Positions 936-55,813 are shown, numbered from the stretch's first letter. The stretch is 64,000 bases of DNA from Alphaproteobacteria bacterium (GCA_965261615.1 OZ253461.1:57046-121045); one strand, 5' to 3'. Program-made: numbers and translations. The notes: generated from the letters alone by a model not told the origin.

Positions 936-937
936 AC

Positions 938-5918: not shown

Positions 5919-5919
5919 C

Positions 5920-22050: not shown

Positions 22051-22185
22051 ACAGGTTTCCCCCATACACCTCGTCCTGCAAGGGACGGCCTGTTCTCCAT
22101 GCGACATCTCGGGCATCACAACAAACCGCATATCCCAAAACACATATAAACTTGACTTTCTGTGCGTTTAAAGTATAATAAGGTT

Positions 22186-23151: not shown

Positions 23152-23347
23152 TTATACTTATCGGACTCTAATTGAATAGTCTGGGGCGTTTCCCCCCGTT
23201 TAATGGTGGGTACGCCCTAGATCAGGCTCCCACTGCCAAGCCTTTTTGATTTGAAAGCTTGCGCATGCTACCGAAAGGATGAGCAAATACAGCAAAAATA
23301 TAAACTAAGTAGGGGGCTAGCATTTTTTGTGATATAACTACTGTACG

Positions 23348-24187: not shown

Positions 24188-24364
24188 GCACTTATAGGCA
24201 TTTAATTGGATAATTTGGGACATTTTCCCCCCGTTTAGTGGTGGGTACGCCCTAGATCAGGCTCCCATTGCCAAGCCTTTTAGCTTTGAAAGCTTCATAG
24301 GATGACAAGCACATCAAATACATTATGTGGACTTTTAGAGTGTTCTATGCTATAAGTTGTTACT

Positions 24365-25243: not shown

Positions 25244-25284
25244 CTTCAGTTAGATTAAAATTTTCTGTGATATAATCTCACACG

Positions 25285-26235: not shown

Positions 26236-26271
26236 TTGCCCCCCCCTTTTTCTCTGTGATACACTTATGCG

Positions 26272-27201: not shown

Positions 27202-27230
27202 ATTTAAAATTTTCTGTGATACAGTACATC

Positions 27231-29300: not shown

Positions 29301-30440
29301 AGTTGAATAATCTGGGGCGTTATCCACCTTTAATTAACAAGGTGGAGACACCTTATATATGACCACACACTTACGGTTTTCATTTCACCCACTGCAAATG
29401 CAGAGACCCAACTATAGCCAAAACATAAACTAACTTGTCTTACGGCCTGATCTATGATAAAATCTCCCCATGATGCAACTTATACTTATATTTACCCTCT
29501 TCATATCAACCTATTCTGTGGCCGCCAGTTCACAGGAAGACGGTTCTATTTGGGAGGGATGGAACACAGCAGATCTTGCCTCCTTTTTAAGACGCGTCGT
29601 GCCTTGTGTAGACGCTATTTCATCCGCCTTGCAGTATAACTATAACAATAAGCATGAGCAACACATCAAGAAAGCTCTAACGCACCTCCACCAGCAAAAC
29701 GCCAAAGCCGTAGAGTCTTGTGCTCATGCGCTCTACGATGCTTTATTCCTCCAAGAGCAAGCCAAGGAAGGTGCAACAACACCTCTCAGCAGCTATCAAC
29801 AACTGCCCTCCTTCAAGAAAAGTGAGCTCTTCAAAGCGGGCAAACTCCACCCCAGATTATCTCGTTTCATAAAACAGCATGGGAGCAACAAAAGACATCT
29901 GGGCAACCCACAACTCGACAGCTTAACGGACTATTTTTGTGGGGCATATTTCACTCCAAACGCCGCTGGCGAAATTATAGAAGTGGAAATCCCTCTTTAT
30001 ATAATAAAAAAGAACGACTGTCCATTAACGCAAACGCACATAAGCACACACGACGCAAACACCTTAACCCCAGGCACATTAGTCTGGAACCAAGACGCTC
30101 TACTAACAACAGAAACCGGAGCCATATTTATATATGCAAAAATCAACCTTCCACCTCTGTTGAGACTCTTTAGTGGAACCTGCTCTTTTGCTGCATATGA
30201 AACAAAACCATCTCCCACACCACGCCTAAAAGCAAGCTCAGAAGGCATAAAATTCAGCCAGAAAATAGAGCAAAATTGCGCATATCTAGCAACGCTCAGC
30301 ACAAAGATAAATGAGTCAGCTCCCCAGCAACAACCAGACCCTTCAAGCATAGAGCAAGAGTGTGCAGACCAAAAGATCAGCAGCACAAAGATCAATGAGT
30401 CGGCCCCCCAGCCACAACCAGACTCTTCTATTTGGGCGGG
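29301..30440. repeat. Copy 2 of the ~1.14 kb tandem duplication
   Basis: See copy 1 at 28161..29300. A third, partial copy follows at ~30428-31230 (tctatttgggcgggatggaacacagcagatcttgcc... matches 28403 onward). Confidence 0.8.
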
Positions 30441-32319
30441 ATGGAACACAGCAGATCTTGCCTCCTTTTTAAGACGCGTCGTGCCTTGTGTAGACGCTAT
30501 TTCATCCGCCTTGCAGTATAACTATAACAATAAGCATGAGCAACACATCAAGAAAGCTCTAACGCACCTCCACCAGCAAAACGCCAAAGCCGTAGAGTCT
30601 TGTGCTCATGCGCTCTACGATGCTTTATTCCTCCAAGATAAGGAAGGTGCAGCAACACCTCTCAGCGGCCATCAAACACTGCTATCCCTCAAGAAAAGTG
30701 AGCTCTTCAAAGCGGGCAAACTCCACCCCAGATTATCTCGTTTCATAAAACAGCATGGGAGCAACAAAAGACATCTGGGCAACCCACAACTCGACAGCTT
30801 AACGGACTATTTTTGTGGGGCATATTTCACTCCAAACGCCGCTGGCGAAATTATAGAAGTGGAAATCCCTCTTTATATAATAAAAAAGAACGACTGTCCA
30901 TTAACGCAAACGCACATAAGCACACACGACGCAAACACCTTAACCCCAGGCACATTAGTCTGGAACCAAGACGCTCTACTAACAACAGAAACCGGAGCCA
31001 TATTTATATATGCAAAAATCAACCTTCCACCTCTGTTGAGACTCTTTAGTGGAACCTGCTCTTTTGCTGCATATGAAACAAAACCATCTCCCACACCACG
31101 CCTAAAAGCAAGCCCAGAAGGCATAAAATTCAGCCAGAAAATAGAGCAAAATTGCGCATATCTAGCAACGCTCAGCACAAAGATAAATGAGTCAGCTCCC
31201 CAGCAACAACCAGACCCTTCAAGCATAGAGCAAGAGTGTGCAGACCAAAAGATCAGCAGCACAAAGATCAATGAGTCGGCCCCCCAGCCACAACCAGACT
31301 CTTCAAGCATAGAGCAAGAGTGTGCAGACCAAAAGATCAGTAGCACAAAGATAAATGAGTCGGCCCCCCAGCCACAACCAGACTCTTCAAGCATAGAGCA
31401 AGAGTGTGCAGACCAAAAGATCAGTAGCACAAAGATAAATGAGTCGGCCCCCCAGCAACAACCAGACCCTTCCTCAAGCACAGCCACCTCAGACTGGGAC
31501 GGGTGGAACATCGCAGACCTCGCCACCTTTTTACAGTGCCACCAACCAACTGCCGCCAACCTTGCAAGGGCATCTAAAAAAAGCTATACAAGTGATCACT
31601 GGAATTATATCGCATACAACCTGACCGCAATACACCAGAGGTTCTCTCGAGCGATATCCTCCTGTGCCCAAGCATTCTATGATGCTTTACAAGACCAATC
31701 TGCGCCACTGCCTGTTTTAAAGCACGATGAACTGTACAAAAATGGTAAGCTTCACCCCGCTTTATCCCGTTTAGTAAAAAAACATGCCAACCGAAGGTAT
31801 AAGATTGGCAATTCACGCACCCGCCGACCGGGAGATCTATTCTCAGTCCTGTATTCCAATCGCAATGGTTGGGGTCTAACCTCACACATATGCATCCCCC
31901 TTTATATATATAAAAGCGATAGCCTTCAATTAACAAGCCCCCACATTAGCAAGTATCAGGAAGCAACCTTACTACCCCCCAGAGGCCCTATTGCTTCAGA
32001 GGCCAATGCACTACTCACGGCTCACGATAGCGCCCTTTTTATATATGCAGAAATCCCTCTTCTCCCCCTATTGGGACCTGTGCGGCTTGTCGCATATCAA
32101 ACAAAACAACAGCCAGGATCACGCTTAACAAACAATGCTGACCACCAAAAATTCACACAACGTATAGAACAGTCTATCCGCGAAATCCCTCAAACGTCCG
32201 CTGCCTCTCATTCAGATCTATTGCCACACCCACTAGCAGCACAAACGCGCACACTGCTGTCTCCACACCAACTAGCAGCAAACGCTATCCGCGCCACATA
32301 TACGCCTGGACAAGTCTGA
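29470..32319 (+). CDS. Tri-modular family-A fusion protein (949 aa): three family-A modules joined by 28-aa repeat linkers
   Basis: Module 1 is nearly identical to 28329..29237. Module 2 (from IWAGWNTADLASFL, no signal peptide) is nearly identical again. 84-bp (28-aa) tandem linker repeats SIEQECADQKISSTKINESAPQPQPDSS follow. Module 3 is divergent (SDWDGWNIADLATFL...SCAQAFYDAL...LYKNGKLHPALSRLVKKH...IPLYIY...PHISKYQEATL...ALFIYAEI...VAYQTK). Confidence 0.6.
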   Translation: MMQLILIFTLFISTYSVAASSQEDGSIWEGWNTADLASFLRRVVPCVDAISSALQYNYNNKHEQHIKKALTHLHQQNAKAVESCAHALYDALFLQEQAKEGATTPLSSYQQLPSFKKSELFKAGKLHPRLSRFIKQHGSNKRHLGNPQLDSLTDYFCGAYFTPNAAGEIIEVEIPLYIIKKNDCPLTQTHISTHDANTLTPGTLVWNQDALLTTETGAIFIYAKINLPPLLRLFSGTCSFAAYETKPSPTPRLKASSEGIKFSQKIEQNCAYLATLSTKINESAPQQQPDPSSIEQECADQKISSTKINESAPQPQPDSSIWAGWNTADLASFLRRVVPCVDAISSALQYNYNNKHEQHIKKALTHLHQQNAKAVESCAHALYDALFLQDKEGAATPLSGHQTLLSLKKSELFKAGKLHPRLSRFIKQHGSNKRHLGNPQLDSLTDYFCGAYFTPNAAGEIIEVEIPLYIIKKNDCPLTQTHISTHDANTLTPGTLVWNQDALLTTETGAIFIYAKINLPPLLRLFSGTCSFAAYETKPSPTPRLKASPEGIKFSQKIEQNCAYLATLSTKINESAPQQQPDPSSIEQECADQKISSTKINESAPQPQPDSSSIEQECADQKISSTKINESAPQPQPDSSSIEQECADQKISSTKINESAPQQQPDPSSSTATSDWDGWNIADLATFLQCHQPTAANLARASKKSYTSDHWNYIAYNLTAIHQRFSRAISSCAQAFYDALQDQSAPLPVLKHDELYKNGKLHPALSRLVKKHANRRYKIGNSRTRRPGDLFSVLYSNRNGWGLTSHICIPLYIYKSDSLQLTSPHISKYQEATLLPPRGPIASEANALLTAHDSALFIYAEIPLLPLLGPVRLVAYQTKQQPGSRLTNNADHQKFTQRIEQSIREIPQTSAASHSDLLPHPLAAQTRTLLSPHQLAANAIRATYTPGQV
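30301..30425. repeat. 84-bp coding tandem repeat, ~1.5 copies (linker between modules 1 and 2)
   Basis: This DNA encodes KINESAPQQQPDPSSIEQECADQKISSTKINESAPQPQPDSS. Confidence 0.7.
31178..31478. repeat. 84-bp coding tandem repeat, ~3.5 copies (linker between modules 2 and 3)
   Basis: Repeated agcatagagcaagagtgtgcagaccaaaagatcag(c/t)agcacaaagat(c/a)aatgagtcggccccccagccacaaccagactcttca, with units starting near 31221, 31305 and 31389. Confidence 0.75.
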
Positions 32320-35459: not shown

Positions 35460-36657
35460 TTTCGCCCACTAGTTTCTTGCGGTAGGCATCCACATCCCCA
35501 TTGGAAATTTGCGCAACACCTGTCTCCACAGCAGCCTTATATACAGCAGCTGCGATTTCCACTAAAAGCTGCTGGTCTGTAAAAGGCGGAACGATAGTTT
35601 CGTATTTTTCAGCAACCACAGATAGACCTTCTGCTGCAGCCATTCTCATCTCCATGTTGATTGTTGATGCTCGACTATCAAGAGCACCCCGCAACAGGAA
35701 TGGGAAGCAAAGTAGATTATTTACTTGATTCGGGTCATCCGAACGTCCAGTTGCCACAAGAACGTCACTTCGTGCCGCCTTTGCTTTTTCTATAGAAATT
35801 TCTGGAACTGGGTTGGCCATAGCAAACACCACTGGATTGGGAGCCATAGACTGCAGCATCTCTTCTGTCATAAGATCAGCTGAAGACAGCCCTACAAAAA
35901 CATTTGCCCCCTCTAGCGCATCTTTTAAGGTACGCGCAGAAGTTTCTCTTGCAAAAGTTTTTTTAAAGTCGTTCATATTTTCTTGCCGCCCTTTATAAAT
36001 CACTCCCGCTCGATCCACGATCAGCATATTTTCAGAATCAACTCCGCAAGCCACCATAAGGTTGGCTGTTGCCAAAGCACTTGCCCCTGCACCCGAAAAA
36101 ACCACCTTAGCATCTTTAAGAGACAGGCCTTGTTTGGTCGCTGCTTTTTTAAGAGCAGAAACGACACAAACCGCCGTTCCATGCTGATCATCATGGAAGA
36201 CCGGAATATCCAGCAATTCTTGGAGACGCGATTCAATATAAAAGCACTCTGGAGCCTTTATATCTTCTAAGTTAATAGCTCCAAAGGAAGGGCTTAAAGC
36301 CTTTACTATTTCTACAATTTTTTCAGGGTCCTTTTCATCAATATTAATGTCTATGGCATCAATATTCCCATACGCTTTCATCAAAGCAGCTTTACCTTCC
36401 ATCACAGGTTTTGCGGCATAAGGGCCAATATCACCAAGGCCTAGCACTGCAGTTCCATTGGTCACTACCGCAACCAAGTGCCCTCGATTTGTATAGTCAA
36501 AAGATTTTAAAGGGTCCTTCGCTATTTCCAGGCACACATCAGCCACACCAGGAGTATAGGCAAGTTCTAAATCCTCCCGACCTCTTAAAGGTTTAAGGAT
36601 AGACGTTCCAATTTTTCCACCTATTGGCTCTTTATGATATTGTAAGCTTTTCTTCAT
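35446..36657 (-). CDS. NAD(P)-dependent malic enzyme (short form, no PTA domain)
   Basis: LELAYTPGVADVCLEI, VVTNGTAVLGLGDIGPYAAKPVMEGKAALMK, FHDDQHGTAVCVVSAL and VVFSGAGASALA are hallmark malic-enzyme blocks. 403 aa. Confidence 0.85.
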   Translation of the reverse strand: MKKSLQYHKEPIGGKIGTSILKPLRGREDLELAYTPGVADVCLEIAKDPLKSFDYTNRGHLVAVVTNGTAVLGLGDIGPYAAKPVMEGKAALMKAYGNIDAIDINIDEKDPEKIVEIVKALSPSFGAINLEDIKAPECFYIESRLQELLDIPVFHDDQHGTAVCVVSALKKAATKQGLSLKDAKVVFSGAGASALATANLMVACGVDSENMLIVDRAGVIYKGRQENMNDFKKTFARETSARTLKDALEGANVFVGLSSADLMTEEMLQSMAPNPVVFAMANPVPEISIEKAKAARSDVLVATGRSDDPNQVNNLLCFPFLLRGALDSRASTINMEMRMAAAEGLSVVAEKYETIVPPFTDQQLLVEIAAAVYKAAVETGVAQISNGDVDAYRKKLVGESANN

Positions 36658-36710
36658 ATTTCACTTTATCAAAAATAATCTGTCGTGTATACTGTAGTAG
36701 AGAAAACCCT

Positions 36711-37277
36711 ATGTTGTTTGATGTTTTATTGCTTCTAATTGTTGTTTGGGTCGGCTTTCGCCTCTTTTCCGCTTTAGGCCAAAACCCCTTAAGCGTTCAG
36801 GGTGAGGTTGGTTTAAAGGAGCCCAAAAAAGCGCCAATTTTAACCATGGAGAACGAAATCAAATCTCTCCTGCCCTCCTACTCAGAAAACAGTTTCAAAC
36901 AAGGGGCTACTCAAGCCTTTGAGTATATTATCCAATCCTTCACGTCCGGGGAAACTAAAAATCTTGAACCACTCCTTGAAAAAGAAATGTTCGAAACATA
37001 TCAGTTAACCATCCAAAAGCGCCTTGAAAAAAAAATCTCCTGCAAGCTACTCTTTTTTCGTCATATTAGCACCCAGCCTATAAGTTTTAGCCACAAAGGG
37101 AATAAAATTTTCATAAAAGTGCGCTTTCGCTCTGAGCAAACACTTGCGCTGTACGACAGAGACGATCAACTCATTCAGGGCAATCCTGATCAATCCGAGA
37201 TTTTGGAAGATGTTTGGACCTTTGCCTGCACCCTTCCCACAAAAAAGGAAGCTTGGCTATTATCTGCCATTAGCTAA
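36711..37277 (+). CDS. Tim44-like domain membrane protein (alphaproteobacterial type)
   Basis: An N-terminal TM helix (MLFDVLLLLIVVWVGF), then a ~150-aa domain ending ...EDVWTFACTLPTKKEAWLLSAIS. That ending resembles the conserved WTF...W-L C-terminus of bacterial Tim44-like proteins. Confidence 0.5.
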   Translation: MLFDVLLLLIVVWVGFRLFSALGQNPLSVQGEVGLKEPKKAPILTMENEIKSLLPSYSENSFKQGATQAFEYIIQSFTSGETKNLEPLLEKEMFETYQLTIQKRLEKKISCKLLFFRHISTQPISFSHKGNKIFIKVRFRSEQTLALYDRDDQLIQGNPDQSEILEDVWTFACTLPTKKEAWLLSAIS

Positions 37278-38452: not shown

Positions 38453-39646
38453 CTATACAAGCAAAATACTCCAGTTTTTCTGATAGCCCGCCAGTATGCC
38501 TCTTGGCCCCACAACATGCTTTGAAAGGTCTTTACTCATAACAAACGCCAGAGAACCATCCAAACTCTTCCCTGACCGAGCCACAACCTCCTGCCATGTC
38601 CTTACCAGATCGCCCTGCACTAAAAGATTTACATCCTTAAACACGTTAGGTGTACTCCAGCCTCTTTGCTGATCCACAAAAAAGAGTAGCATCTCACCTT
38701 CCTCACACCCTGACCAAAAGGAAAGCTCTTGACTCGCCGGCACTAAACCAAAGCTGTTGCGCAAAATAGCTACTTGCACAGGCTCATAGCGATACTGAGT
38801 AAGCGGTACACTTATCTTTTTTTCGACACCATCACGCTTTACTATAAACTCAAATTGAGTAAGGTGCGTTGATACAGGGATTTGCCAAGCCTCGCTGATT
38901 TTTTTACCATTTACTTGCAAAATTACATCCCCCACTTCCAGCTCAGGTGGTGCAAATCTTTCTTTTGCAGATAAAATCACCTCTTTTTCTAATTTGCACG
39001 CCTTATTTTTGCTGAAAGAAAGAAACGCACAGCTAGGCAGTACATATTCTTTTTGCTCAACATATGTGCCCTCTACTTTAGCAATTGCACGTTTTAACAA
39101 CGCACGCATGTGCGCTTGCAACACACACACGCCTCCACTAACAACCATAGCAAACACCTCGTCACGCACATTACACAATAGTGTTCCTAAAGAAAACTGA
39201 CCGCTTGTTTCATGCAAATATACAGTTGCTAAGGGACTTAGCATAATAGGCACAGAAGGATCGCGACTCACTACAGCCTGCCTCCCCTTTAATGTTGTTC
39301 CATCCTCGCTAATAGACACTGGATGTAATAACTCGTCAGACGAACCTAAGTAAGCGCTCTGCACATTTGACAGCGCTTCCTCTTTTTTCACCCGCAGAAT
39401 ACAAATACCATGCAAACGATCTACCGCCACAACGTCACAAGGCGATTTGTTCACAGAAAAGCTATCACAACCAAAAGGCCCTTGGTTGTAAGGCGCCAAC
39501 ACCAAACCTTTGTTTTTATCTACACACACCCCAGAAAAAAATAAGTGCCCTCCATTACGGTCATGCTGACTTTGAATCAAAACTAATGATCGAGCCGCCC
39601 ATAACGTCCCTGAACATAAAAAAAGTAACAAAATTTTCTTAATCAT
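38453..39646 (-). CDS. HtrA/DegP-like paralog P1 (trypsin fold + PDZ); catalytic triad degenerate
   Basis: Signal/lipobox-like N-terminus MIKKILLLFLCSG. The Asp region (VVAVDRLHGICILRV, cf. DLAVLRV) is kept, but the His block and the GxSGG block are lost (HETSGQFSLGTLLCNVRDEVFAMVVSGG). PDZ-like LEVGDVILQVNGKKI. Confidence 0.6.
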   Translation of the reverse strand: MIKKILLLFLCSGTLWAARSLVLIQSQHDRNGGHLFFSGVCVDKNKGLVLAPYNQGPFGCDSFSVNKSPCDVVAVDRLHGICILRVKKEEALSNVQSAYLGSSDELLHPVSISEDGTTLKGRQAVVSRDPSVPIMLSPLATVYLHETSGQFSLGTLLCNVRDEVFAMVVSGGVCVLQAHMRALLKRAIAKVEGTYVEQKEYVLPSCAFLSFSKNKACKLEKEVILSAKERFAPPELEVGDVILQVNGKKISEAWQIPVSTHLTQFEFIVKRDGVEKKISVPLTQYRYEPVQVAILRNSFGLVPASQELSFWSGCEEGEMLLFFVDQQRGWSTPNVFKDVNLLVQGDLVRTWQEVVARSGKSLDGSLAFVMSKDLSKHVVGPRGILAGYQKNWSILLV

Positions 39647-40923
39647 TTTGACCTTACCTTACTTGGATAACCCACAACAAAGCAGGGTGACGTCTCTTCT
39701 GGAGTGTAAAACAGCTCAACTGCCTCCGGGTAATTTGAAAAAAAGATGCGCTTTTTCTTGCCAACTATATCATCCAGTCGCACCCTGCTCCCATCCAAGT
39801 TCGATATAGTCTGCGTACGAAAAAACGTCGCCCACTCAAAATTATTTCTTCGACCCTGATAAGAAGACTCCGTATTTTTCCTCAACGGATCTCGAGAGCT
39901 AAGCTGATACACTGGGTTCACTGGAGATCTATTAACGATCCGTCCCTGATACACGCAGACATCCCCTGCACTTTCCAAAGGTTCCTGTGGACTAAAATCA
40001 GAGTCTTGAAGGTCGACTTCTAACACTTCACCGTTTCGCAACACCCTCACACGATTCGTTTGGACAAAAGGACGTCCGCTTCCCCACGCCATCATACTTT
40101 TTGCATTTAAACGGACTGGCTCGTAACGCAATACGTCACCAACCTTTAGAGAGGTTGTGTCGCGATCAAGTGTTAACAAATATCGTGGCATTGCTTCACC
40201 TTTTTCTAAGGCAAGAGCTGCGTCAATTTCCTGAGAGTATTTATTGATAAATATAAATCGGGAAGTTGGAGTAATACGCATTGGAGCCTCTATTCTTTCT
40301 ACCTTGCCTCCCGGAAGTTGAGACTGGGTTAATTGCTGCACAACCTCTTTAATGATATAGCTTGGTACATAAGTCGCCTCGCTCTCTGCAAAACTATTCC
40401 CAGCAAACGCAACGACCTCTTCTGTATTCTTTCTCAAAAAGACTCCCCCAGAAAAGGGCGCAATACCCTTCCAATAGTATTTAACTCCATCAAAATCTTG
40501 CTCACTAAGCGTTACGTGCGTTTTTTGATACCCTTTCACCAAAAATCGTAAATCCGTCGGTCCAGCATAATATTTCGCAGCAAGTTTTGCCTCCTTCACA
40601 TAGGATGGTAGTTTTTTCACTTGTACAATCGCAAACCCCAAAAGTTCACTTGAAAATAGCTTCTTTGCCTCCAAGATAGCAGATTTACCTTCAGGCCCTT
40701 GAATCACCACAGAACAGGACTCAACTATCCCAAAACTCCAAGGGCTCGAGCTCACCACTATATAACCATGCTTTTTAGAGACAACAACACCCAAAGCAGA
40801 AATAGGAGCTTGTGTTGACGCAACAAAGGATAGGCTGGGTGTAGCATGGACCTCCACTAAGCTACGATCCCCCCCACAAAGCACATGTCCGATCAATATA
40901 AGCAAACCTAGAAATATACTCAT
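39643..40923 (-). CDS. HtrA/DegP-like paralog P2; triad partly degenerate
   Basis: MSIFLGLLILIGHVLCG signal. GFAIVQV (Asp→Phe) and IAPFSGGVFLRKNTEEVVAFAGN (the Ser of a GxSGG-like block is retained, but the canonical His block is absent). PDZ-like LKVGDVLRYEPVRLN. The stop overlaps the P1 start. Confidence 0.55.
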   Translation of the reverse strand: MSIFLGLLILIGHVLCGGDRSLVEVHATPSLSFVASTQAPISALGVVVSKKHGYIVVSSSPWSFGIVESCSVVIQGPEGKSAILEAKKLFSSELLGFAIVQVKKLPSYVKEAKLAAKYYAGPTDLRFLVKGYQKTHVTLSEQDFDGVKYYWKGIAPFSGGVFLRKNTEEVVAFAGNSFAESEATYVPSYIIKEVVQQLTQSQLPGGKVERIEAPMRITPTSRFIFINKYSQEIDAALALEKGEAMPRYLLTLDRDTTSLKVGDVLRYEPVRLNAKSMMAWGSGRPFVQTNRVRVLRNGEVLEVDLQDSDFSPQEPLESAGDVCVYQGRIVNRSPVNPVYQLSSRDPLRKNTESSYQGRRNNFEWATFFRTQTISNLDGSRVRLDDIVGKKKRIFFSNYPEAVELFYTPEETSPCFVVGYPSKVRSK

Positions 40924-42266
40924 GTTACATCCTCCACAAATGCTTTTTGAGGCTCCATACCCTCCGCGCACTCTATTCTTTCAAAAAAGGACAGCAAACG
41001 CTCAACCCTATTTGGATGATGCGTAAAGTGCCCTCGTATTTCATCTCGTGGAATCGCAATAGACCAAACTGACACTGACTCTAGCACCATGTCTACTGAT
41101 CCACCTTTAGACTGTCGCAGAATCTGCTCTACTTGAGAAAGGTTCTTAATTTCTTGGCCATTCATTTTTTTGACCTCACTGCTCTCAAACGCGCCCACAT
41201 CATGCTTCTCACACACAATATGTTCTCCCTGTAAATCGGTGAAAATAAAGAATGTGTATGGGCCAAATGTTATTGTGCCTTGAGGGTTGGCTCGCATAGT
41301 ACGAGTGTTCAGCGGCACCTCCACTTCTTGTTCTGCCCCCACACGCATAACCTTTGCCTTAAAAGATTGTGCTCCAGATAGCCACTCCTGCCAAATAGCT
41401 CGAACCACCCCTTCATGAGAAAACACTTTCTTTCCTGCCACTTCTAGAAACACATCCCCCGGCAACAAAACACCTTCACGGCGGTTACAATACCAAGCAA
41501 TCAAAGTAGGCACCTTTCCTAGCGGATAAGATTTTTCCTGCTCTAAAGTCACTTTACGCTGCCAGTTTTCTTCCAATTCACCCAAATTCACAGTCTCTAG
41601 AGCCCACTGCATACGAACTGTATTCCCATTATTCTCAACTTCAGAGTCTAACAGCATGCGCAAATAGTACCCAGGAATCATCTCCATCGTCGCACGATAG
41701 CCCCCAAACAACGCCCCCACAATAGCATTTGTTTCCACATCCAGCACAGGAGATCCGCGCACAACTGTCCTCAACAATCCAGAACACTCCACAAGCGGAA
41801 CACACCCAGCAGCAGTAGCGAAGGAGTTTATTTCCCCGCCATCCCATAAAAGCTTTTCCTTTTCCACAATCCAACGCACTTTCTGGCAAGGGGTCAACTC
41901 TTTTTGTGAAGAACTTATGTCAAACTGGTGCAAACCCTGCAATAAACCTTTGTCCTCATCACAGACATAAAGAAAATTAATGCCATAATAAGTAACGACC
42001 TTTGAGCAGCGAATATGGATGCCCTTTGCATGGCTTAAAAAGGCCTCCGCCTGCACTTGCTCATTCGGAGAAAAAGAGAAGTTGCTCGAAACATATAGAA
42101 AAATTCCCCTTTTTTTATCAACTAAAAAAGCGACGCCATCTTCATAAAAAATATTTTTCGTCTTCCCTTGCTTAACATGCATTGAAACATTAAATATGCC
42201 TGTTTCATATCCAAAGGCCGCACTTGTTAGCCCCCCCAAAAATATACAAAAAATTATGAAGAGCAT
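40920..42266 (-). CDS. HtrA/DegP-like paralog P3; triad degenerate
   Basis: Signal MLFIIFCIFLGGLTSAAFG. GVAFLVDKKRGIFLYVSSNF (no His), VRGSPVLDVETNAIVGALFGG (GDSGGP lost). PDZ-like GDVFLEVAGKKVFSHEGVV. Confidence 0.55.
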   Translation of the reverse strand: MLFIIFCIFLGGLTSAAFGYETGIFNVSMHVKQGKTKNIFYEDGVAFLVDKKRGIFLYVSSNFSFSPNEQVQAEAFLSHAKGIHIRCSKVVTYYGINFLYVCDEDKGLLQGLHQFDISSSQKELTPCQKVRWIVEKEKLLWDGGEINSFATAAGCVPLVECSGLLRTVVRGSPVLDVETNAIVGALFGGYRATMEMIPGYYLRMLLDSEVENNGNTVRMQWALETVNLGELEENWQRKVTLEQEKSYPLGKVPTLIAWYCNRREGVLLPGDVFLEVAGKKVFSHEGVVRAIWQEWLSGAQSFKAKVMRVGAEQEVEVPLNTRTMRANPQGTITFGPYTFFIFTDLQGEHIVCEKHDVGAFESSEVKKMNGQEIKNLSQVEQILRQSKGGSVDMVLESVSVWSIAIPRDEIRGHFTHHPNRVERLLSFFERIECAEGMEPQKAFVEDVT

Positions 42267-43597
42267 GACTCGTCCTCCTTGCCCAATGGCTGAATCTTCT
42301 GCACTGTTAGCTCCCCTGTTTTTTCATTCAGGTTAGACTTATAGCAAAACCTCAAGTTAGCGTGCGGGGCTTGATAGGCGTAGCTTATCACTATCTGACG
42401 TATCGGCCATACGCTCTCATCCGCCAAAACTTCCCAAAGAGCCGGTTCCCATAAACTCTTACTCAAAGCTTGCTCTAAATCATCTATTGTATAAATCTCT
42501 TGGCCTTTTATGGACTTTAATATACCGACCCTATGGCCACGTTCCCTGAAAACCACTCTATACCGCATATCACCTAGCAAAAGGCTCTCTGGCATTTCAA
42601 AAAAGTCTATATCTCCATAAACAATAAAGCGCGACACACCTGCGTTAAGTTTATCAAACTTTTTTTGCACATCTAGAGTATGCCCATAACGAAAAACCTT
42701 CAAAACTATATGATCTTTACTCGTCTTTTGAACTTCATCATACAAGGTCAAAAAGCTTCCTTTCACAGGAACACCATTAGCCTCAAGAATAATATCCCCA
42801 ACCTCAAGGCCACTTTCATCATCTCGATTCAGCTTACTTTCAAGCTGCAGCACTTTATCACAGCCCTTAAAATCATCTAAAGGTGGAAGGTCTAGCGCCC
42901 ATACCGCCATTGGGAAAAAGCCATAACCCCTAAAACCACGGTGCATCCAATCATCAGCAGGGTTATCGTACTGCGCACGAGCTCGATTCAAAAACGACCT
43001 TACATGCGTCAAGGTAACCGCCCCTGTCGTGCCTATATTAAAAGATAAGGCAATCACCCCTATAAGCTCCCCTCGGTCATTAACAAGAGGAGAGCCACTA
43101 GACCCAGGAGCGCATAAACTTGCCAGCAAATATATTGACTCTAGACCTAAAAAACCTGTATTTGGCTTTTCACGCAGAAAGTGTCCTCTTCGGCTGACAA
43201 AACCACGCCCATCTTCATTACCCAAGAAAAAAACCTCATCACCAGGACATGGGCTTCTCTCGGCCACTTTAACCTCAACCATACCTTCTAGAAACTGTGG
43301 GTCTACCCTGAGCACCGCTAAATCAGCATCCGTATCTGAAAGTAAAATATGTGCTGGAGCACTCTCTCCTTGATGGTTTTGCAAGCGAAATGTTTTTCGC
43401 CCCTGCTCCATCACCACATGTAGGTTGGTCAAAACAAGACCACGCTTCTTGTCTACCACAAAACCACTTGCAGTTCCTTGGTGGTGCGCCACAAACACGT
43501 CTTGCATATTAATCACAACAAAGGATTTTTTCAAATCCACCATCTCTGCTTTTAAGGCAAAGACGGCAAGCAGCATTGCATAAATCGGCCTCATCAC
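42254..43597 (-). CDS. HtrA/DegP-family serine protease P4 with an intact catalytic triad and a PDZ domain
   Basis: His block GFVVDKKRGLVLTNLHVV, Asp block DADLAVLRV, Ser block CAPGSSGSPLVNDRGELIGV, and PDZ GLEVGDIILEANGVPV. Signal peptide MMRPIYAMLLAVFALKA. Confidence 0.75.
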   Translation of the reverse strand: MMRPIYAMLLAVFALKAEMVDLKKSFVVINMQDVFVAHHQGTASGFVVDKKRGLVLTNLHVVMEQGRKTFRLQNHQGESAPAHILLSDTDADLAVLRVDPQFLEGMVEVKVAERSPCPGDEVFFLGNEDGRGFVSRRGHFLREKPNTGFLGLESIYLLASLCAPGSSGSPLVNDRGELIGVIALSFNIGTTGAVTLTHVRSFLNRARAQYDNPADDWMHRGFRGYGFFPMAVWALDLPPLDDFKGCDKVLQLESKLNRDDESGLEVGDIILEANGVPVKGSFLTLYDEVQKTSKDHIVLKVFRYGHTLDVQKKFDKLNAGVSRFIVYGDIDFFEMPESLLLGDMRYRVVFRERGHRVGILKSIKGQEIYTIDDLEQALSKSLWEPALWEVLADESVWPIRQIVISYAYQAPHANLRFCYKSNLNEKTGELTVQKIQPLGKEDESCSS

Positions 43598-44892
43598 ACT
43601 CCCACTCCTTTTTTGACAAAAAGCATGCCAGATCCTGAGTATGGAAAAGCCCTACGTGACACAAGAAGCTGATTTGTTTGCGTCTCTAACATACTCTTAA
43701 CGTCTAGTATAGTCATGGTCTCTGGCGTATGCTGCAAAAAAACATCTCCCCTCATCACATTATCTAGTGGACGAATGGCGGTCATATGGTTGCTTTTTGC
43801 AAAAAAGGCCAATGTCCCTATGCTGTAATTGGGGAAAAACAATGACTGCAAAAACGGAGTAAGAAACACAGCCACAAAGGACGGGTGCACCAACAAACCC
43901 ACCTTATCTTCAGGAAAAGTGGACGTCTGAACCTTAACAGTTTGGCGTTCTGCCTTTCGCACCACATCTAAGCTTAACTCCTGCATATCCCGGCCTTCTT
44001 TTTGCAAGCTACCCAAACCAACATCCTTTCCGTTCATTTTTAGAATCACATCTTCTGTTTCTAGGCCATTTTTATTTTCTATCACAACAAGCACTGTGTC
44101 TTGTTTAATCTCACGAATATGCTCTTTATTGAGCAACCCTGAATACATCAGCGAGCTCACAGATACTTCCCGCACATTTATATCCACAAATCTTGGCTGA
44201 TAGCTTTGCCCTTTTTCGAAGCTTTGCAAAGCTTTACGCATATCTGCTGCACCGACAAAGAACTGGCCTTCCTCAAGTTCTGGACTCACAGTAAACCCAA
44301 CCAGCCGCTGGCTATCTGAAACAAGAGCACCTCGAACGTCAAGCGCTGGGTAATCTTCTTGCGGCACCCACCGCATAAAAGTACGCCCTCTAACCTCATT
44401 AACAAAGTCTACAGTAATTGGCACCCCTTTATTTTCACCTAAATTGTGATACACTCTTCCAGACGTTTCGGTGCCATCAGCAAGCTTCAAAGCCTCCACG
44501 CCCTTTGGAAGCTGCGACACTTGTATCATCGCAATACCCAGCACAACATCTTGATAAACAAGACTACCTTTCTGGCGATCTCCATTATAAAATTCCACCG
44601 TGATTTCTTCAAAAGCACTCGCATATAAAGAAGGGTGCGAAACCATTATTAAGTTCTTCTTTTTACTTACCACAGCACCTAAAACACGCAACGTTGGGCC
44701 TGGCAGCGCACCCTCATGTGTAAAGCTAAACTTATACAACTTGGCCTCTGGGATCAAAATCGAACCATGAGAAAAAACATCTACAAACACAAGGGATTGC
44801 TCTATTTCAAAACCTTTTTTTTGATACAAAGAGCGGATCAAAAACAAAGACGCCACCCCAACACAAATACTTAAAAATAGTTTACGTTGCAT
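43594..44892 (-). CDS. HtrA/DegP-like paralog P5; triad degenerate
   Basis: Signal MQRKLFLSICVGVASLFLI. VLGIAMIQV replaces DLAVLRV, and LDVRGALVSDSQRLVGFTV replaces the GDSGGP block. PDZ-like TEDVILKMNGKDV. Confidence 0.55.
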   Translation of the reverse strand: MQRKLFLSICVGVASLFLIRSLYQKKGFEIEQSLVFVDVFSHGSILIPEAKLYKFSFTHEGALPGPTLRVLGAVVSKKKNLIMVSHPSLYASAFEEITVEFYNGDRQKGSLVYQDVVLGIAMIQVSQLPKGVEALKLADGTETSGRVYHNLGENKGVPITVDFVNEVRGRTFMRWVPQEDYPALDVRGALVSDSQRLVGFTVSPELEEGQFFVGAADMRKALQSFEKGQSYQPRFVDINVREVSVSSLMYSGLLNKEHIREIKQDTVLVVIENKNGLETEDVILKMNGKDVGLGSLQKEGRDMQELSLDVVRKAERQTVKVQTSTFPEDKVGLLVHPSFVAVFLTPFLQSLFFPNYSIGTLAFFAKSNHMTAIRPLDNVMRGDVFLQHTPETMTILDVKSMLETQTNQLLVSRRAFPYSGSGMLFVKKGVGV

Positions 44893-46303
44893 CTTCCCTA
44901 TCCTTTTGTTTTACTTCACGCCACAAACCACCTCGGTTACGTTGAAATCGCGTCATACGCCCTGAAATTGATGTCCTAAAGAGCTGATGCGCTGCAAAAA
45001 GTTGAGGAAAGGGGCCACTCGCCCCACATATCATACGAACAGGACTACATGGCGCCGCAACTAGATCCAACTGCCGCCCTGTATATGTTGTTAAGTATGT
45101 CCAAAGTTCATCTAAGCTTGCCATATACAAACCGTTAATCCGTTCAAGCATAGAGTTTGGACACAGGGACTCTAAAACAGTCCCCTGGCCTACACTGTTA
45201 GCTACCATCATTATTTGCTGTAACCGCTCATCCCAAACAAAACAAATCTCCCCCAAAAACACAACATCTGTATGATAAGGCACCACATCAAAAGCCACCT
45301 CAGCATTTTTCACTTCATTTCCACGCAAAACCTTAACATTAAGGTGGGTTTCCCCACGGTCCAGCGCTTTATGCACAGCACGCGCCCATATGCCATAGCT
45401 CGTGACACGAACGTCCTTGTCTTCCTCCACAGAAACGAGCACATCTCCGGCCTTTACTGTTGTTTTCGGCCGCAAATCAACCCCATAAAACTGCACTCCT
45501 GAAGTACTATCCGGAAAAAGCTCTCGCGTTTTATCTTCCGGAACCCCAGCCTCTCGAGCAACCAACACAACATCCCTTCTAAGGATATTGGCCGTCCCCT
45601 CCCCTAGAGACACGCCAAAACCCTTTTCCTTAATCCGCTCATAATAGACATTAATAACCTCTGAGCGAATTAAGCAGTGCGATTCATCCACAACACCCAC
45701 TACAGTGCCTCTAGCACCCACAACAGGAGTTCCTACACCAGCCACCTGACTGTCTCGATCTCGAAACCGAGCTCCATCTGTACTGTCCTCACGCCACGCC
45801 ACTAAGCCTTCATCACCTTCCAAGCAAATATGCACAGGACCAGAGTAGTTCTCTGCTAAATCAAGAGTCCATTCTTTCACTCGCTGTAAGCAAGATTTAT
45901 CCCCAACAACCTGTGCAAAGGCCAAAGTATTAAAACGGGTGATTAAAAAAGCAACCTCTACCTTTTGCCCATCGACAATAATGAAGTGTCGTAAAGCATC
46001 TTCACTAATACCCCACTCCCAACTGGTTACAAAAATACCATTTTTTCGATCAATTAAAAACGCCTTACGCTCCACACGACAAGCGACACAACCACTTGCA
46101 AGAGCCGACCCCAAAAACTCAGCTCTCATTACAACGGTATCGATAGGATGATCTGTGTCTGCAAAGGCGGATTCCTGCAAACAGACACTAGCGACGATCA
46201 GCAAAAAACTGCTGCAAAAGCCGACACGACTCTTCTGCACACACACCGCCAATAACCTGCTCAGACCCCACTGATTTCCAAACACTTCCATCGCTGCAAC
46301 CAT
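44882..46303 (-). CDS. HtrA/DegP-like paralog P6; triad degenerate
   Basis: NTLAFAQVV replaces DLAVLKV, and GTPVVGARGTVVGVV replaces GDSGGPLV..GEVIGI. PDZ-like VKAGDVLVSVEEDKDV. The start is uncertain: the ORF start at 46303 overlaps the tadA 3' end, and a likely alternative GTG start near 46240 gives a signal peptide beginning (M)CVQKSRVGFCSSFLLIVASVCLQESAFA. Confidence 0.5.
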   Translation of the reverse strand: MVAAMEVFGNQWGLSRLLAVCVQKSRVGFCSSFLLIVASVCLQESAFADTDHPIDTVVMRAEFLGSALASGCVACRVERKAFLIDRKNGIFVTSWEWGISEDALRHFIIVDGQKVEVAFLITRFNTLAFAQVVGDKSCLQRVKEWTLDLAENYSGPVHICLEGDEGLVAWREDSTDGARFRDRDSQVAGVGTPVVGARGTVVGVVDESHCLIRSEVINVYYERIKEKGFGVSLGEGTANILRRDVVLVAREAGVPEDKTRELFPDSTSGVQFYGVDLRPKTTVKAGDVLVSVEEDKDVRVTSYGIWARAVHKALDRGETHLNVKVLRGNEVKNAEVAFDVVPYHTDVVFLGEICFVWDERLQQIMMVANSVGQGTVLESLCPNSMLERINGLYMASLDELWTYLTTYTGRQLDLVAAPCSPVRMICGASGPFPQLFAAHQLFRTSISGRMTRFQRNRGGLWREVKQKDREDAT

Positions 46304-46577
46304 AGCATATCCTCATGACTCTACACCTACGAATAATTGCAGCACACATAGCACATGGCTGTGCTGTAACATAAATACAACTAGTAGAGTCAATCGCCAC
46401 CTGACTTTTTAACACCACTTTAAGCACCTCATGCTCCGCGTGAGCGAGCGGATCACCACAAGACTTCACTTTATTATGAGACTGACATACAAGCTCCCCT
46501 TGATGCCAAAAGCTTGCAGCCACCGGCACCTCACCTTTTGCCACCGCACATCGCGCCACTTCAAGAGTCTGACGCAT
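46188..46577 (-). CDS. tadA: tRNA-specific adenosine deaminase TadA
   Basis: Zinc-binding motifs PLAHAEHEVL and AQPCAMCAAI. The likely start is MRQTLEVARCAVAKGEVPVAASF at ~46577. Confidence 0.85.
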   Translation of the reverse strand: MRQTLEVARCAVAKGEVPVAASFWHQGELVCQSHNKVKSCGDPLAHAEHEVLKVVLKSQVAIDSTSCIYVTAQPCAMCAAIIRRCRVMRICYGCSDGSVWKSVGSEQVIGGVCAEESCRLLQQFFADRR

Positions 46578-46653
46578 TCTTAACTCATGCTGCTCCGGAG
46601 ACTCCAACCAAAAATCAAGGTTCTGTAGCTCGCTATCCCACAATAGTTTGTGC

Positions 46654-47292
46654 CTATTTTCTAACAAGGGCATCCTTTCCAGCCTCTTTCAGTGCACGAC
46701 ACAACCTACCTGCATCCTCAGGCTCAAGATCCACAATAGACAGCACGTAATAGCGACAGCGCCCATCTCTTTCGCAAATTACAGCCTGATCCATATAGTC
46801 TTTAAGAAGTGTTTTATATGGCTCTTTACGTGCAATGTCATGCAACATACGCAAAGCTTGGGCTCTCTCAGTAAATGTTCCTAAATCCAAAGAGGGCCCT
46901 TCTTTTTGAGATCCAGCCCCTTCACTATTTTTAACAGCATCCCGATCACTGCAAATATTCACAACATCAGTATGAATTGTGTAGTAGTGGCGAGACTCCT
47001 TCTCAGCAACACGCACCACCTCTTCTTTTTGGCCCGGAGATCCTTTATCAACGAGCTTATATACGGCATAACCCTTATCATCCGCACGGAACCCCCCTGG
47101 ATCTAACGGAACTGCGCGAACCCCTCCATCAACATTTTTTACATACACGACGCCTCGACTCTCAGGAGGGGATAAAATAAACCACGTCAAGAATACTAAC
47201 AAAAGCACCCCAAGAACTATAGCCAGCCGAACTAACGTTGTCTTGTTGATGTAAATACGGCCTTTCATTCTTTTATCTTTTAAATCTTGCAC
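46654..47292 (-). CDS. SPOR-domain-like membrane protein (possible peptidoglycan-binding/septal protein)
   Basis: An N-terminal TM (LVRLAIVLGVLLLVFLTWFIL). The C-terminal ~75 aa (LGTFTERAQALRMLHDIARKEPY...YYVLSIVDLEPEDAGRLCRALKEAGKDALVRK) follow the SPOR pattern. Confidence 0.45.
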   Translation of the reverse strand: MQDLKDKRMKGRIYINKTTLVRLAIVLGVLLLVFLTWFILSPPESRGVVYVKNVDGGVRAVPLDPGGFRADDKGYAVYKLVDKGSPGQKEEVVRVAEKESRHYYTIHTDVVNICSDRDAVKNSEGAGSQKEGPSLDLGTFTERAQALRMLHDIARKEPYKTLLKDYMDQAVICERDGRCRYYVLSIVDLEPEDAGRLCRALKEAGKDALVRK

Positions 47293-53771: not shown

Positions 53772-54878
53772 ATGTTCCTGAAATTCTTGCTTACTGTATT
53801 TCATATTAGCGCAACCAGCCTTATCGCGGCAAACGGTACATCAGATTACGAGTTAACTATACAACCACCTCATTTATGCTCTCAATGCGCGCAGCCAGCG
53901 CTCTCACAGGAGTTCCATAATACTCTAGCTTTCTCCAAACAGCCACTCAAAGTACAAGCTGCCCATCTCTTACTGTACTCCTACCAAGCAGGCATTTTTC
54001 TTCTGCTTGCACAACAGTCACGCACAGATAGACACTGGAAAAACATTCAAAAAGCTCTTGGCTCACTGTATCTCAATGAGCTCGAACTACTCCATGAGCT
54101 TAGCCACATCACTTACGAGCGCTTTTACAGGCGACTATGCCCCGACTCCTTAAAAAACGCCCCTGTTTACAGCGAGCATAACCTTCGCCCAGACTTTTTC
54201 GAGTTTCTAACAAAACATGCCACACACCACTCAGTGAGCCTCTGTGTAAATATTCGTAACGCTCAAAGAATAATTCCTCTTTGGCGCCCTCGCACCTCAA
54301 TATTGGGAAACATCAATTCACTGTGTATTTGTCTGTACACAATAGATGCTGTTTCCGCACAACCCATCATACACTCTGCCCCAGCGACATCAGCACAAGT
54401 AGATCCCGAATCAATCCCCGAAGCAAGCACGCCTGCCACTTTAGCCAGCCTCTTCAGCGCCATAGTTACGCCACCTCCTCACAGCGGGACACACTACACC
54501 CTAGTCGAGGTACCTCTAACCACAAACAGCCCTTTGAACTTTTTTATCATAAAAGAAGGAGAACCTTGCTCATTGCCACGTTGCTTCGCTGACATGCCAG
54601 ACCGCATACGCAACCTGCGTTCCGTATTACAAAAAGACTGGTCTCTAAGCTCACAAAATAGCCACTGTTTTCGCAAACAAATCGACGCAGACGCACCCTT
54701 TACAACCCCTATTAAAACCACAAGTTTTTTTGAAACACCACACACCAACCTCATGCACCAAGAACCCTCTGCCTCCCTTCCTCCCTTTCCGTCTCAAGCG
54801 GTAGTTACTACCACCCTCCCCCAAACTATCTCAGCTAAAGAGTCACAATCTCTACAGCCAGGAGAATTCTGGATTTAA
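53772..54878 (+). CDS. Family-B secreted paralog 1 (368 aa)
   Basis: Signal MFLKFLLTVFHISATSLIAA. It shares QPLK.QA.HLL.Y...A......Q....D.HW..I..AL.SL...E...L..L...TY and RPDF..FL..HA with 56820..57848. Confidence 0.6.
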   Translation: MFLKFLLTVFHISATSLIAANGTSDYELTIQPPHLCSQCAQPALSQEFHNTLAFSKQPLKVQAAHLLLYSYQAGIFLLLAQQSRTDRHWKNIQKALGSLYLNELELLHELSHITYERFYRRLCPDSLKNAPVYSEHNLRPDFFEFLTKHATHHSVSLCVNIRNAQRIIPLWRPRTSILGNINSLCICLYTIDAVSAQPIIHSAPATSAQVDPESIPEASTPATLASLFSAIVTPPPHSGTHYTLVEVPLTTNSPLNFFIIKEGEPCSLPRCFADMPDRIRNLRSVLQKDWSLSSQNSHCFRKQIDADAPFTTPIKTTSFFETPHTNLMHQEPSASLPPFPSQAVVTTTLPQTISAKESQSLQPGEFWI

Positions 54879-54884
54879 TGCACC

Positions 54885-55712
54885 ATGACTATAATCGCCT
54901 TAGCACTCTCACTGCTCTCATCTATCTCCGCTGCCACAACATCAATCTGGGAGGGGAGCAGCATTGAAGCCCTCGCCGCCTGCTTGAGATTCCACCCACA
55001 GTCTGTGGCTAATCTTTCAGCCGCCCTACAGCTCAAACCTACAAATGCTCACGAAATAAACATCAAGAGCAGCCTAACAGCAATACACCAACAATACACA
55101 AAAATGCTCACAAGCTGCGCTCAAGCATTTTATGACGCTTTAGACGCCAATGAGCAAAAGCGGCAAGCTACTCCCACGACCCCGCTGCTCACAAAAAAAG
55201 TAATCCCTGCTTTAGAGTCCAGTGAGCTCTTCAAAAACGACAAAGTTCATCCAGCCTTATCTCCTTTTGTCCAAAAGTATGCAAAAAAAACCGCACCGAC
55301 CCTAAAGACCCCATGGGACCCAAAAGAAATTTTTGATCTCGTATTCTTCGATCGCACTATCTTTAGGCAGCTTTCTCACATAGAAGTGCCCCTATATATA
55401 TTAGATACAAGCGAACATACACTACCCCGCACTATGAGCATGCAGGACGCAAACAACTTAATCCCTCCATCAAGCCCACTAGCGTCTAACGAACTGTGTG
55501 CTCTAAGCGCAGCTCCAACACTTATATACGCTAAAATTCCAGTTTTGTCCCAATCTGAAGCCATAACATTTGTCACCTATGAAATAAACCCACAAACCAC
55601 ATCACGCCTACAGGAACGATCTAAATACACAGCGCGCAGAAAGGAGATTGCACAAACTTGTCAAGGATACGCCAGGTTAGAAAAGCTCTCTAAGGCGACA
55701 CCCCTTCAGTAA
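54885..55712 (+). CDS. Family-A secreted paralog 11 (divergent; no conserved C-terminus)
   Basis: SIWEGSSIEALAACL, SCAQAFYDAL, LFKNDKVHPALSPFVQKY, VPLYI, TLIYAKI, FVTYE. Confidence 0.6.
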   Translation: MTIIALALSLLSSISAATTSIWEGSSIEALAACLRFHPQSVANLSAALQLKPTNAHEINIKSSLTAIHQQYTKMLTSCAQAFYDALDANEQKRQATPTTPLLTKKVIPALESSELFKNDKVHPALSPFVQKYAKKTAPTLKTPWDPKEIFDLVFFDRTIFRQLSHIEVPLYILDTSEHTLPRTMSMQDANNLIPPSSPLASNELCALSAAPTLIYAKIPVLSQSEAITFVTYEINPQTTSRLQERSKYTARRKEIAQTCQGYARLEKLSKATPLQ

Positions 55713-55813
55713 AATGCACCTCTGGCTAATGGTCCTTAAAACTCATCAATTTTGCAGAAAGATAGCCGTATATTAAAAGTTTGACAATGGACACAGGTGT
55801 GATATAATTTTAT

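Follow-up and report, generated by a model that had tools for sequence, protein, structure and literature searches.

A candidate alphaproteobacterial operon encoding one predicted active HtrA-type protease and five triad-less paralogs

Why would a bacterium keep five HtrA-type proteins that have lost their catalytic residues, encoded side by side with one that has retained them? The question is raised by a 64,000-nucleotide (nt) stretch of an Alphaproteobacteria bacterium genome (GCA_965261615.1, OZ253461.1:57046-121045), hereafter the window, in which the open reading frame (ORF) listing has six back-to-back ORFs on the minus strand at 38453-46303, as a first-pass annotation had pointed out. 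The locus reads, with near certainty, as one active and five dead HtrA paralogs in a conserved operon, and the dead copies are old genes whose retention points to a purpose, that of partners of the active member, P4, being the likeliest. The six genes and their ortholog groups (OG) are as follows.

38453..39646, minus strand: P1 (OG1), 397 amino acids (aa); dead HtrA-like protein comprising a protease-like, a PDZ1 and a PDZ2-like region behind a predicted N-terminal export signal
39643..40923, minus strand: P2 (OG2), 426 aa from ATG 40923 (longest ORF from GTG 40971); dead HtrA-like protein
40920..42266, minus strand: P3 (OG3), 448 aa; dead HtrA-like protein
42254..43594, minus strand: P4 (OG4), 446 aa from ATG 43594 (longest ORF to 43597); predicted HtrA-type protease with PDZ domains and the triad His59/Asp91/Ser166
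43594..44892, minus strand: P5 (OG5), 432 aa; dead HtrA-like protein
44882..46240, minus strand: P6 (OG6), 452 aa from GTG 46240 (longest ORF from ATG 46303); most diverged dead member, overlapping the 3′ end of tadA

Family members from related loci, described below, are denoted Q1-Q6 (locus L006), L4a-c (L004) and R1 and R2 (L002).

P4 is the only array member to pass a Pfam cut-off, that of Trypsin_2 (PF13365; 1e-19, 72 bits against 27.6), while its PDZ_6 score of 24.7 bits lies just below the cut-off of 27. Despite this score at least one C-terminal PDZ domain can be assigned: phmmer alignments with the solved structures of DegQ, DegS and HtrA1-3 (best 3e-14) run through PDZ1 to residue 317, and between the OG4 and HtrA profiles the match is 99.9%, with residues 38-379 covered. 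The His (TNLHVV), Asp (DADLAVL) and Ser (GSSGSP), with codons at 43418-43420, 43322-43324 and 43097-43099, respectively, occupy invariant columns in both a 28-sequence HtrA alignment and the family alignment, and the triad is kept in the ortholog Q4 (29% identical, 3e-28). P4 is predicted from its intact triad to be a working serine protease. The best non-self database match is 24% identical, identity to anything else found is at most 29%, and the best NCBIfam equivalog, degP_htrA_DO, reaches 69 bits against a cut-off of 416, every equivalog model being far under its cut-off. P4 is best regarded as a divergent HtrA/DegP/DegQ (S1C) member and not an ortholog of a named enzyme such as DegP, DegQ, DegS, HhoA or others.

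The remaining five proteins have lost the triad. In an L-INS-i alignment of 17 family members with 12 canonical HtrAs, the combination of His, Asp and Ser is found only in P4 and Q4; the same columns read N/G/L in P1, S/G/S in P2, S/N/R in P3, P/G/V in P5 and E/A/V in P6. The catalytic His is absent from every dead member, and a His located one position upstream of the catalytic column in P5 and L4c is missing in their orthologs (Q5 for P5). Among the dead members an Asp is retained only in Q1 and Q2 and a Ser only in P2 and Q5; each thus has at most one triad residue, and no leftover residue is common to orthologs. The P2 serine, in the FSGGV motif, is replaced by His, Asn or Pro in R2, Q2 and L4b, and the possibility of P2 being a Ser-only enzyme was rejected on account of this lack of conservation. 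These columns agree with the first-pass annotation, which had assigned the canonical residues to P4 alone, had found the His block missing and the GxSGG block replaced in P1, P3, P5 and P6 and had noted a Ser without a His in P2. The dead state of the five paralogs is ancient.

That the five are nevertheless HtrA-derived is less evident from pairwise comparison, as they are only 16-25% identical to P4 and among themselves. All six have a GDV(I/L)-type PDZ block, with Pfam PDZ scores sub-threshold throughout. In single-sequence hhalign comparisons with an HtrA profile, P5 scores 96% (residues 72-329), P3 95% (PDZ region only), P1 88.6%, P2 26% and P6 7%, and with the paralogs added to the profile all five reach 92-97%. 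Ortholog-group profiles match an HtrA-only profile at 98.7% for OG1 (residues 34-381, spanning the protease, PDZ1 and PDZ2), 96.8% for OG2 (residues 39-310), 97.3% for OG5 and 97.2% for OG3, the last over the PDZ1 and PDZ2 region; the N-terminal domain of OG3 in turn matches the OG1 protease domain at 95.7%. P6 reaches 92% over residues 60-390 only with paralogs in the profile, HtrA alone giving 7-46%, and the OG6 profile remains at 46% against HtrA only, which is probably an underestimate since the pairwise MAFFT alignment of P6 and Q6 is poor and misplaces the conserved LIDKKRG motif. Q6 also matches the N-terminal barrel of P4 directly (3e-5, blastp).

AlphaFold models of P3 (pLDDT 58) and P6 (pLDDT 53) are confident in the N-terminal barrel and PDZ1 of the former and at residues 55-125 and the PDZ region of the latter, and in both also in part of the second PDZ-like domain. 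The best Foldseek matches in the PDB are all DegP, DegQ, Deg or HtrA2 (3.5e-9 for P3 and 2.8e-7 for P6). The models are supporting rather than independent evidence, as their input alignments consisted of the window paralogs and generic HtrAs. Overall, all six proteins derive from an HtrA-type protease-PDZ-PDZ protein, P6 being the weakest case, and P1, P2, P3, P5 and P6 can be described as probable HtrA-derived pseudoproteases which have kept the scaffold and the PDZ1 core. The layout of a protease domain followed by PDZ that had been proposed for all six is upheld by profiles for P1-P5 and, for P3 and P6, by the Foldseek matches to DegP and DegQ; the protease fold of P6 is on weaker ground, and Pfam alone passes only the Trypsin_2 domain of P4. 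The broader proposal of one competent HtrA-like protein and five triad-less paralogs with a PDZ-type region in a single operon is supported by the profiles, the catalytic columns, the partial AlphaFold models and, above all, the conservation of the 1+5 arrangement.

Conservation throughout the family is confined to the PDZ1 core (GD, VxRxG), a family-specific "DK" turn preceding the His strand and some scattered columns. In the dead copies conservation is poorest, and model confidence lowest, in the second barrel with the active-site loops. The turn, a basic one with the consensus [VI]-D-K-[KN]-[KR]-G in a comparison of P1-P6, Q1-Q6 and the L004 and L002 proteins, comes just before the strand that bears the catalytic His in HtrA; 13 of the 16 family members, whether dead or alive, have its D-K core, whereas canonical HtrAs have SPDGY instead and the nearest single-copy relatives VDKENG and ADKEKG.

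The array is not confined to one genome. Four related loci, L002, L004, L005 and L006 (also L007), were located by synteny with the neighbouring malic enzyme gene as a handle. The sources of L006/L007 are a metagenome of the sponge Aplysina aerophoba and one from JGI, their malic enzyme being labelled as that of an "Alphaproteobacteria bacterium" metagenome-assembled genome (MAG), and SRR8092709 is a sample of sponge origin. The layout is that of the window: a SPOR-like gene, tadA, six overlapping genes (442, 392, 445, 447, 416 and 411 aa in order), dksA, smr, tim44 and malic enzyme, with a Trypsin_2 match in the third gene only, which is the position of P4. In blastp, P1 pairs with Q1 (2e-7), P2 with Q2 (1e-8), P3 with Q3 (9e-9), P4 with Q4 (3e-28) and P5 with Q5 (1e-12), and reciprocal best matches follow gene position for OG1-OG5 (five of the six groups), at 20-29% identity between window and L006 orthologs. 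L004 has OG3-OG2-OG1 in order with overlaps of 4-7 nt, the array then running off the locus. L002, the closest relative (malic enzyme 75% identical), has OG2-OG1 at a contig end. The orthologs of P1 are R1 (32-34% identical), Q1 (24%) and L4c (24%), those of P2 are R2, L4b and Q2, and those of P3 are Q3 and L4a.

These lineages are deeply diverged, with TadA 38-45% and malic enzyme 57-75% identical. The fixed order, the six ortholog groups and the coupled junctions therefore argue for long retention and in effect exclude frameshift artefacts and decaying relics. A survey of related genomes for orthologous arrays, which the first-pass annotation had proposed, thus yields the same six-gene 1+5 array in L006/L007 and partial arrays in L004 and L002, and its worry that the six ORFs might be frameshift products of fewer genes is answered by six reading frames of about 400-450 aa which all have orthologs in further genomes; these equally exclude a chance pattern.

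The gene junctions in the window are tight, and two further genes adjoin the array on its upstream side.

46188..46673, minus strand: tadA, tRNA adenosine deaminase (NCBIfam TadA 6.7e-18, with Pfam deaminase domains), immediately upstream of the array
46654..47292, minus strand: 212-aa protein upstream of tadA with a 20-nt overlap, the positional counterpart of the SPOR-like gene of the relatives

The adopted starts give overlaps of 4, 4, 13, 1 and 11 nt at the five internal junctions. The start of P2 at ATG 40923 has GGAGGA 8 nt upstream, and its ATGA overlaps the P3 stop; those of P4 (ATG 43594) and P6 (GTG 46240) were chosen because the database copies are 446 and 452 aa long. The overlaps of 4-13 nt reported earlier hold for four junctions (4, 4, 13 and 11) provided that P2 starts at ATG 40923, but the remaining one is 1 nt with these starts. 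A Shine-Dalgarno-like purine run precedes P1-P5 (AAGGAGG in the case of P3), whereas the adopted start of P6 has a weak upstream sequence, GAGGA being found in front of the longest-ORF start at ATG 46303 alone. As had been noticed, tadA lies immediately upstream and the start of P6 is inside its 3′ end, by 53 nt (116 nt for the longest ORF). A Pfam scan of the window copy of the 212-aa protein gave no match; the gene at its position in L006/L007 has a weak SPOR match, and its close resemblance to L002 gene g217 was judged by eye only. The gene spacing suggests that tadA is probably co-transcribed with the array and that the operon probably comprises the SPOR-like gene, tadA and P6-P5-P4-P3-P2-P1.

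A single strongly hydrophobic segment stands at the N terminus of each of P1-P6 (Kyte-Doolittle mean 2.3-3.1 over 11 residues); beyond it nothing membrane-like was found, no later 19-residue window exceeding 1.7 by the same hydropathy heuristic, which was used for the export-signal calls in place of SignalP. The segments are consistent with Sec export of all six proteins. A family hidden Markov model found no further member in the window. The GC content of the array agrees with that of its flanks, and a mobile island was rejected on this ground together with the lack of mobility genes and the conserved neighbourhood.

Beyond the synteny-derived loci the dead copies appear isolated. Searched against 5.8 billion proteins, a profile of the five dead paralogs had only itself among the matches listed, and phmmer with P6 against 1.84 billion representatives returned only P6 itself and the proteins P0104 and P0105, which were rejected as homologues since they are long and highly repetitive with six short matched stretches. 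Apart from a small, host-associated alphaproteobacterial clade, these two large protein searches detected no homologue of the dead copies. GTDB representative genomes searched with P4 and then with a P1/R1 alignment gave no confirmed match, and JGI metagenome contigs searched with P1 and P2 family alignments gave nothing. Two malic enzyme matches tried as locus handles, P0110 and P0196, were set aside as uninformative, being a truncated contig and an archaeal locus.

Genes that are single-copy and bear the triad are the closest relatives of the family as a whole. In a neighbour-joining tree (366 columns, 100 bootstraps) the family forms a clade with two of these, P0002 and P0003, in 100% of replicates, and by itself in 71%; P0002 occurs in another MAG as a lone gene flanked by tmk and holB. 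Because of this clade and the single-copy state of P0002, the array probably expanded from one active gene of the P0002 type. How the expansion proceeded may be reflected in the relations between the groups. Out of 15 possible pairings, mean distance picks OG1 with OG4, OG2 with OG5 and OG3 with OG6 as nearest, each gene having its partner three places along (i and i+3) in the operon order 6-5-4-3-2-1. Profile scores make OG1 and OG4, and likewise OG2 and OG5, each other's best match; the best match of OG6 is OG3, but that of OG3 is OG1. The slowly evolving OG4 sits at the base of the tree. A block duplication of a three-gene unit is suggested by this pattern, though suggestively only.

Those neighbours of the array that have family matches are housekeeping genes. 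A block of dksA, smr, tim44, malic enzyme and an RsmD-like gene is present in all four related loci (L002, L004, L005, L006). The region of L002 at 1-3624 differs from the window at 38453-47292 by a local rearrangement within the same neighbourhood: in L002 tadA directly faces dksA, while the window and L006 have tadA, array and dksA in succession. At 4931-7202, between smr and tim44, L002 alone has two orphan genes (240 and 496 aa) which look like a local paralog pair, with similar stretches recognizable by eye (...NLMFARNFGRAL... and ...YEVLKQAVLCA.TK.IEKGS.LE.AA.RWG...). Two other features of the window are listed here.

36624-37277, plus strand: Tim44/TimA-family protein (2e-30)
20046-32319, plus strand: tandem array T1-T10, ten ORFs of 293, 349, 329, 279, 292, 316, 309, 321, 302 and 949 aa

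T1-T10 have no credible Pfam match. They share a near-identical signal peptide at the start (MKFILIFTLFISTYSIGASS...) and are 32-94% identical pairwise, and T10 is a three-module fusion whose first module is 94% identical to T9. They appear to be a recently expanding family of secreted orphan proteins, unrelated to the HtrA array. A large proportion of the window's ORFs of at least 250 aa are without a Pfam or NCBIfam match, for example those at 9187-10314, 11018-11998, 12355-13638, 18125-19768 and 53772-56629, and even the malic enzyme of the window forms a singleton when clustered at 90% identity; the lineage behind the window is very isolated. GC skew on the plus strand is -0.15 to -0.35 in every 2-kb bin of the window without a change of sign, which therefore places neither a replication origin nor a terminus there and the array on the G-rich strand. 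Rfam gave no RNA family above threshold across positions 1-64000.

What, then, might the five dead copies do? HtrA proteases are the standard example of homo-oligomeric protease-chaperones in the bacterial envelope; they are obligate trimers, assemble into 6-, 12- and 24-mers and pass activation allosterically from one neighbouring subunit to another, and a triad-less DegP still acts as a chaperone. The reading we prefer, at a probability of roughly 0.45, is a hetero-oligomeric periplasmic HtrA machine with one catalytic subunit. The translationally coupled genes would yield six proteins in fixed proportion, and these would come together in the periplasm as an HtrA-type hetero-oligomer made up of trimers. 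Cutting would be left to P4 as the only active subunit, and the dead subunits would contribute substrate or peptide binding, a holdase surface, or allosteric or architectural control of the active site. A fixed stoichiometry is suggested by the translational coupling together with the fixed copy number, and it is this, combined with the trimeric nature of HtrAs, the PDZ1 core kept in the dead copies and the precedent of the MamO/MamE pair discussed below, from which we infer a hetero-oligomer.

In a narrower version, two unlike heterotrimers would dimerize into one fully asymmetric particle in which each paralog is present once and only one active site exists; it would be encoded by a block-duplicated heterotrimer operon (6~3, 5~2, 4~1), and the five dead copies would be distinct PDZ sensors gating the protease in trans. 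This we consider rather unlikely; if true, it would be the first hetero-oligomer of HtrA type from a bacterium, and would give the ClpP/ClpR or proteasome beta rings an ATP-independent counterpart in the periplasm.

Several observations weigh against the picture of an old, conserved and jointly acting gene set. Contact among the six proteins is an inference. Complete arrays are known from two lineages only, as the other two are cut by contig ends. The pairing of P6 with Q6 is undetectable by blastp, their orthology following from gene position alone. In L002 the SPOR-like gene and tadA have the array on their upstream and not their downstream side, and reading the P1 ortholog there takes two frames (g148 and g272); the change, at 1571-1642 near a GGGAAAAAC run, may be either an assembly indel or a real frameshift. 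Bootstrap support for the pairs behind the block duplication is 76% for OG2+OG5, 41% for OG3+OG6 and 1% for OG1+OG4. The AlphaFold models of P3 and P6 are of low overall confidence (58 and 53), and their HtrA-like fold is partly circular. Finally, promoter and terminator scans reached background level only, so that co-transcription is read from gene spacing alone.

The dead paralogs could alternatively work apart from P4, as independent periplasmic holdases or peptide-binding decoys that form their own homo-oligomers and serve different clients, with P4 being a housekeeping neighbour of the DegP/DegQ type. The conservation pattern, in which the PDZ1 core is the best conserved part of the family, would suit such a role, as would the chaperone activity of triad-less DegP; no second canonical HtrA of this genome was seen among the P4 matches in a search limited by its word filter, which hints weakly that the locus may supply all HtrA functions. 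Independent proteins would, however, not need a fixed order, copy number and translational coupling across deeply diverged lineages, and the PDZ domain is below Pfam thresholds in every dead copy. We regard this arrangement as unlikely; were the six proteins indeed to act separately, they would illustrate, within one compact locus, the subfunctionalisation of duplicates in a reduced genome. A periplasmic scaffold or lattice, with P4 as its processing or maintenance protease, has a model in PflC, a triad-less HtrA-derived protease:PDZ:PDZ lattice former with the active-site cleft as its most diverged part (PMC12222027), and the array shows the same pattern in the poor conservation and low model confidence of the second barrel and active-site region. 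Here the neighbours with family matches (tadA, dksA, smr, tim44-like, malic enzyme) speak against it, as they point to no flagellar, secretion or envelope machine, and no partner structure is identifiable, which makes a scaffold decidedly improbable.

A family of secreted or surface effectors or adhesins, diverging fast under host pressure with the protease fold as a carrier, is brought to mind by the high ortholog divergence (20-29% identity), by the lack of detectable homologues of the dead copies outside the clade and by the host-associated origin of at least one carrier lineage, from a sponge metagenome. Yet both complete arrays have exactly six genes in 1:1 positional orthology without recent duplicates. 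T1-T10, located 6 kb away in the same genome, show what genuine expansion of a secreted family looks like, and the effector reading is weakened because the HtrA array is unlike them. The predicted N-terminal signals are of the Sec type only, and no secretion-system genes adjoin the array. Effectors or adhesins are thus very improbable. Least credible of all, and close to dismissible, is the notion that the five genes are non-functional duplication relics or frameshift artefacts of fewer genes. Loss of the triad, the very low identity between paralogs and the split of the L002 P1 ortholog over two frames at an A5 run could be taken that way, but the ORFs are intact (392-452 aa), each with its own start and signal segment, and keep the same boundaries in lineages with TadA only 38% identical; relics would not survive so long in reduced genomes of about 1.5 Mb. 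Among the functions proposed in the first-pass annotation, a regulated or hetero-oligomeric proteolytic or chaperone complex would fit best, while adhesins or effectors fit poorly with the fixed copy number and the 1:1 collinear orthology.

A fixed set of one live and five dead paralogs would offer a natural experiment on how many active sites an HtrA cage needs, and likewise on the contribution of non-catalytic sensing, holding and architecture. The locus also defines five protein families which no current domain model recognizes above threshold.

Among the known systems close to the array are the canonical HtrA/DegP/DegQ/DegS proteins (MEROPS S1C), which P4 resembles in the Trypsin_2 domain, the H-D-S triad, PDZ1, the PDZ2-like region and the predicted export signal, and whose protease:PDZ:PDZ layout is common to all six proteins. 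Canonical HtrAs are, however, single genes or dispersed active paralogs forming homo-oligomers, whereas here five of the six co-encoded paralogs are dead. The spl operon of Staphylococcus aureus (SplA-F) likewise consists of six tandem genes for chymotrypsin-fold serine proteases whose products are exported, as is predicted for the array. The Spl proteins belong to S1B, keep the triad in all members, have no PDZ domain, are 44-95% identical and vary in number between strains; with five of six proteins lacking the triad and PDZ-type regions in all, the array is not of the Spl type. Duplicated subunits that became obligate hetero-oligomers with only some of them catalytic are found in the cyanobacterial and plastid ClpP/ClpR rings and the 20S proteasome beta rings, and the plant Deg5-Deg8 hetero-hexamers are HtrA-family hetero-oligomers in which both subunits are active. 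To our knowledge, none of these is a bacterial HtrA system with a 1:5 ratio; ClpP/ClpR and the proteasome belong to other protease families, and for the array a hetero-oligomer is a proposal.

A functional precedent is MamE/MamO of magnetotactic bacteria, in which an active HtrA and an HtrA-derived pseudoprotease are likewise encoded in one gene cluster and MamO is needed for MamE proteolysis independently of its own triad (PMC4794232). MamE/MamO is a 1+1 pair in the magnetosome island, in contrast to five distinct dead paralogs without a magnetosome context, and MamO carries a fused transporter domain and has been repurposed, through a di-histidine motif, for metal binding; the array is related to it only at the family level, its neighbours with family matches are housekeeping genes, and the locus is not classed as MamO-like. 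In PflC, a periplasmic protein of the Campylobacter jejuni flagellar motor medial disk with the protease:PDZ:PDZ layout and an atrophied triad, the oligomerization tendency of HtrAs is used in a non-catalytic role (PMC12222027). PflC is a single gene with a place in a flagellar structure, where it forms a homomeric lattice with PflD, while the array co-encodes six paralogs, one of them active, without a visible flagellar context. The literature searched describes MamO and PflC as single HtrA-derived pseudoproteases, and no description of a multi-paralog 1+5 operon was found in it. The first-pass remark that no HtrA pseudoprotease array is known in bacteria therefore holds for the fixed 1+5 operon but not for single pseudoproteases, which are known from MamO (PMC4794232) and PflC (PMC12222027). 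It is the fixed multi-paralog 1+5 operon that is new, and with it the locus adds a bacterial case to the theme of pseudoenzymes regulating their active paralogs.

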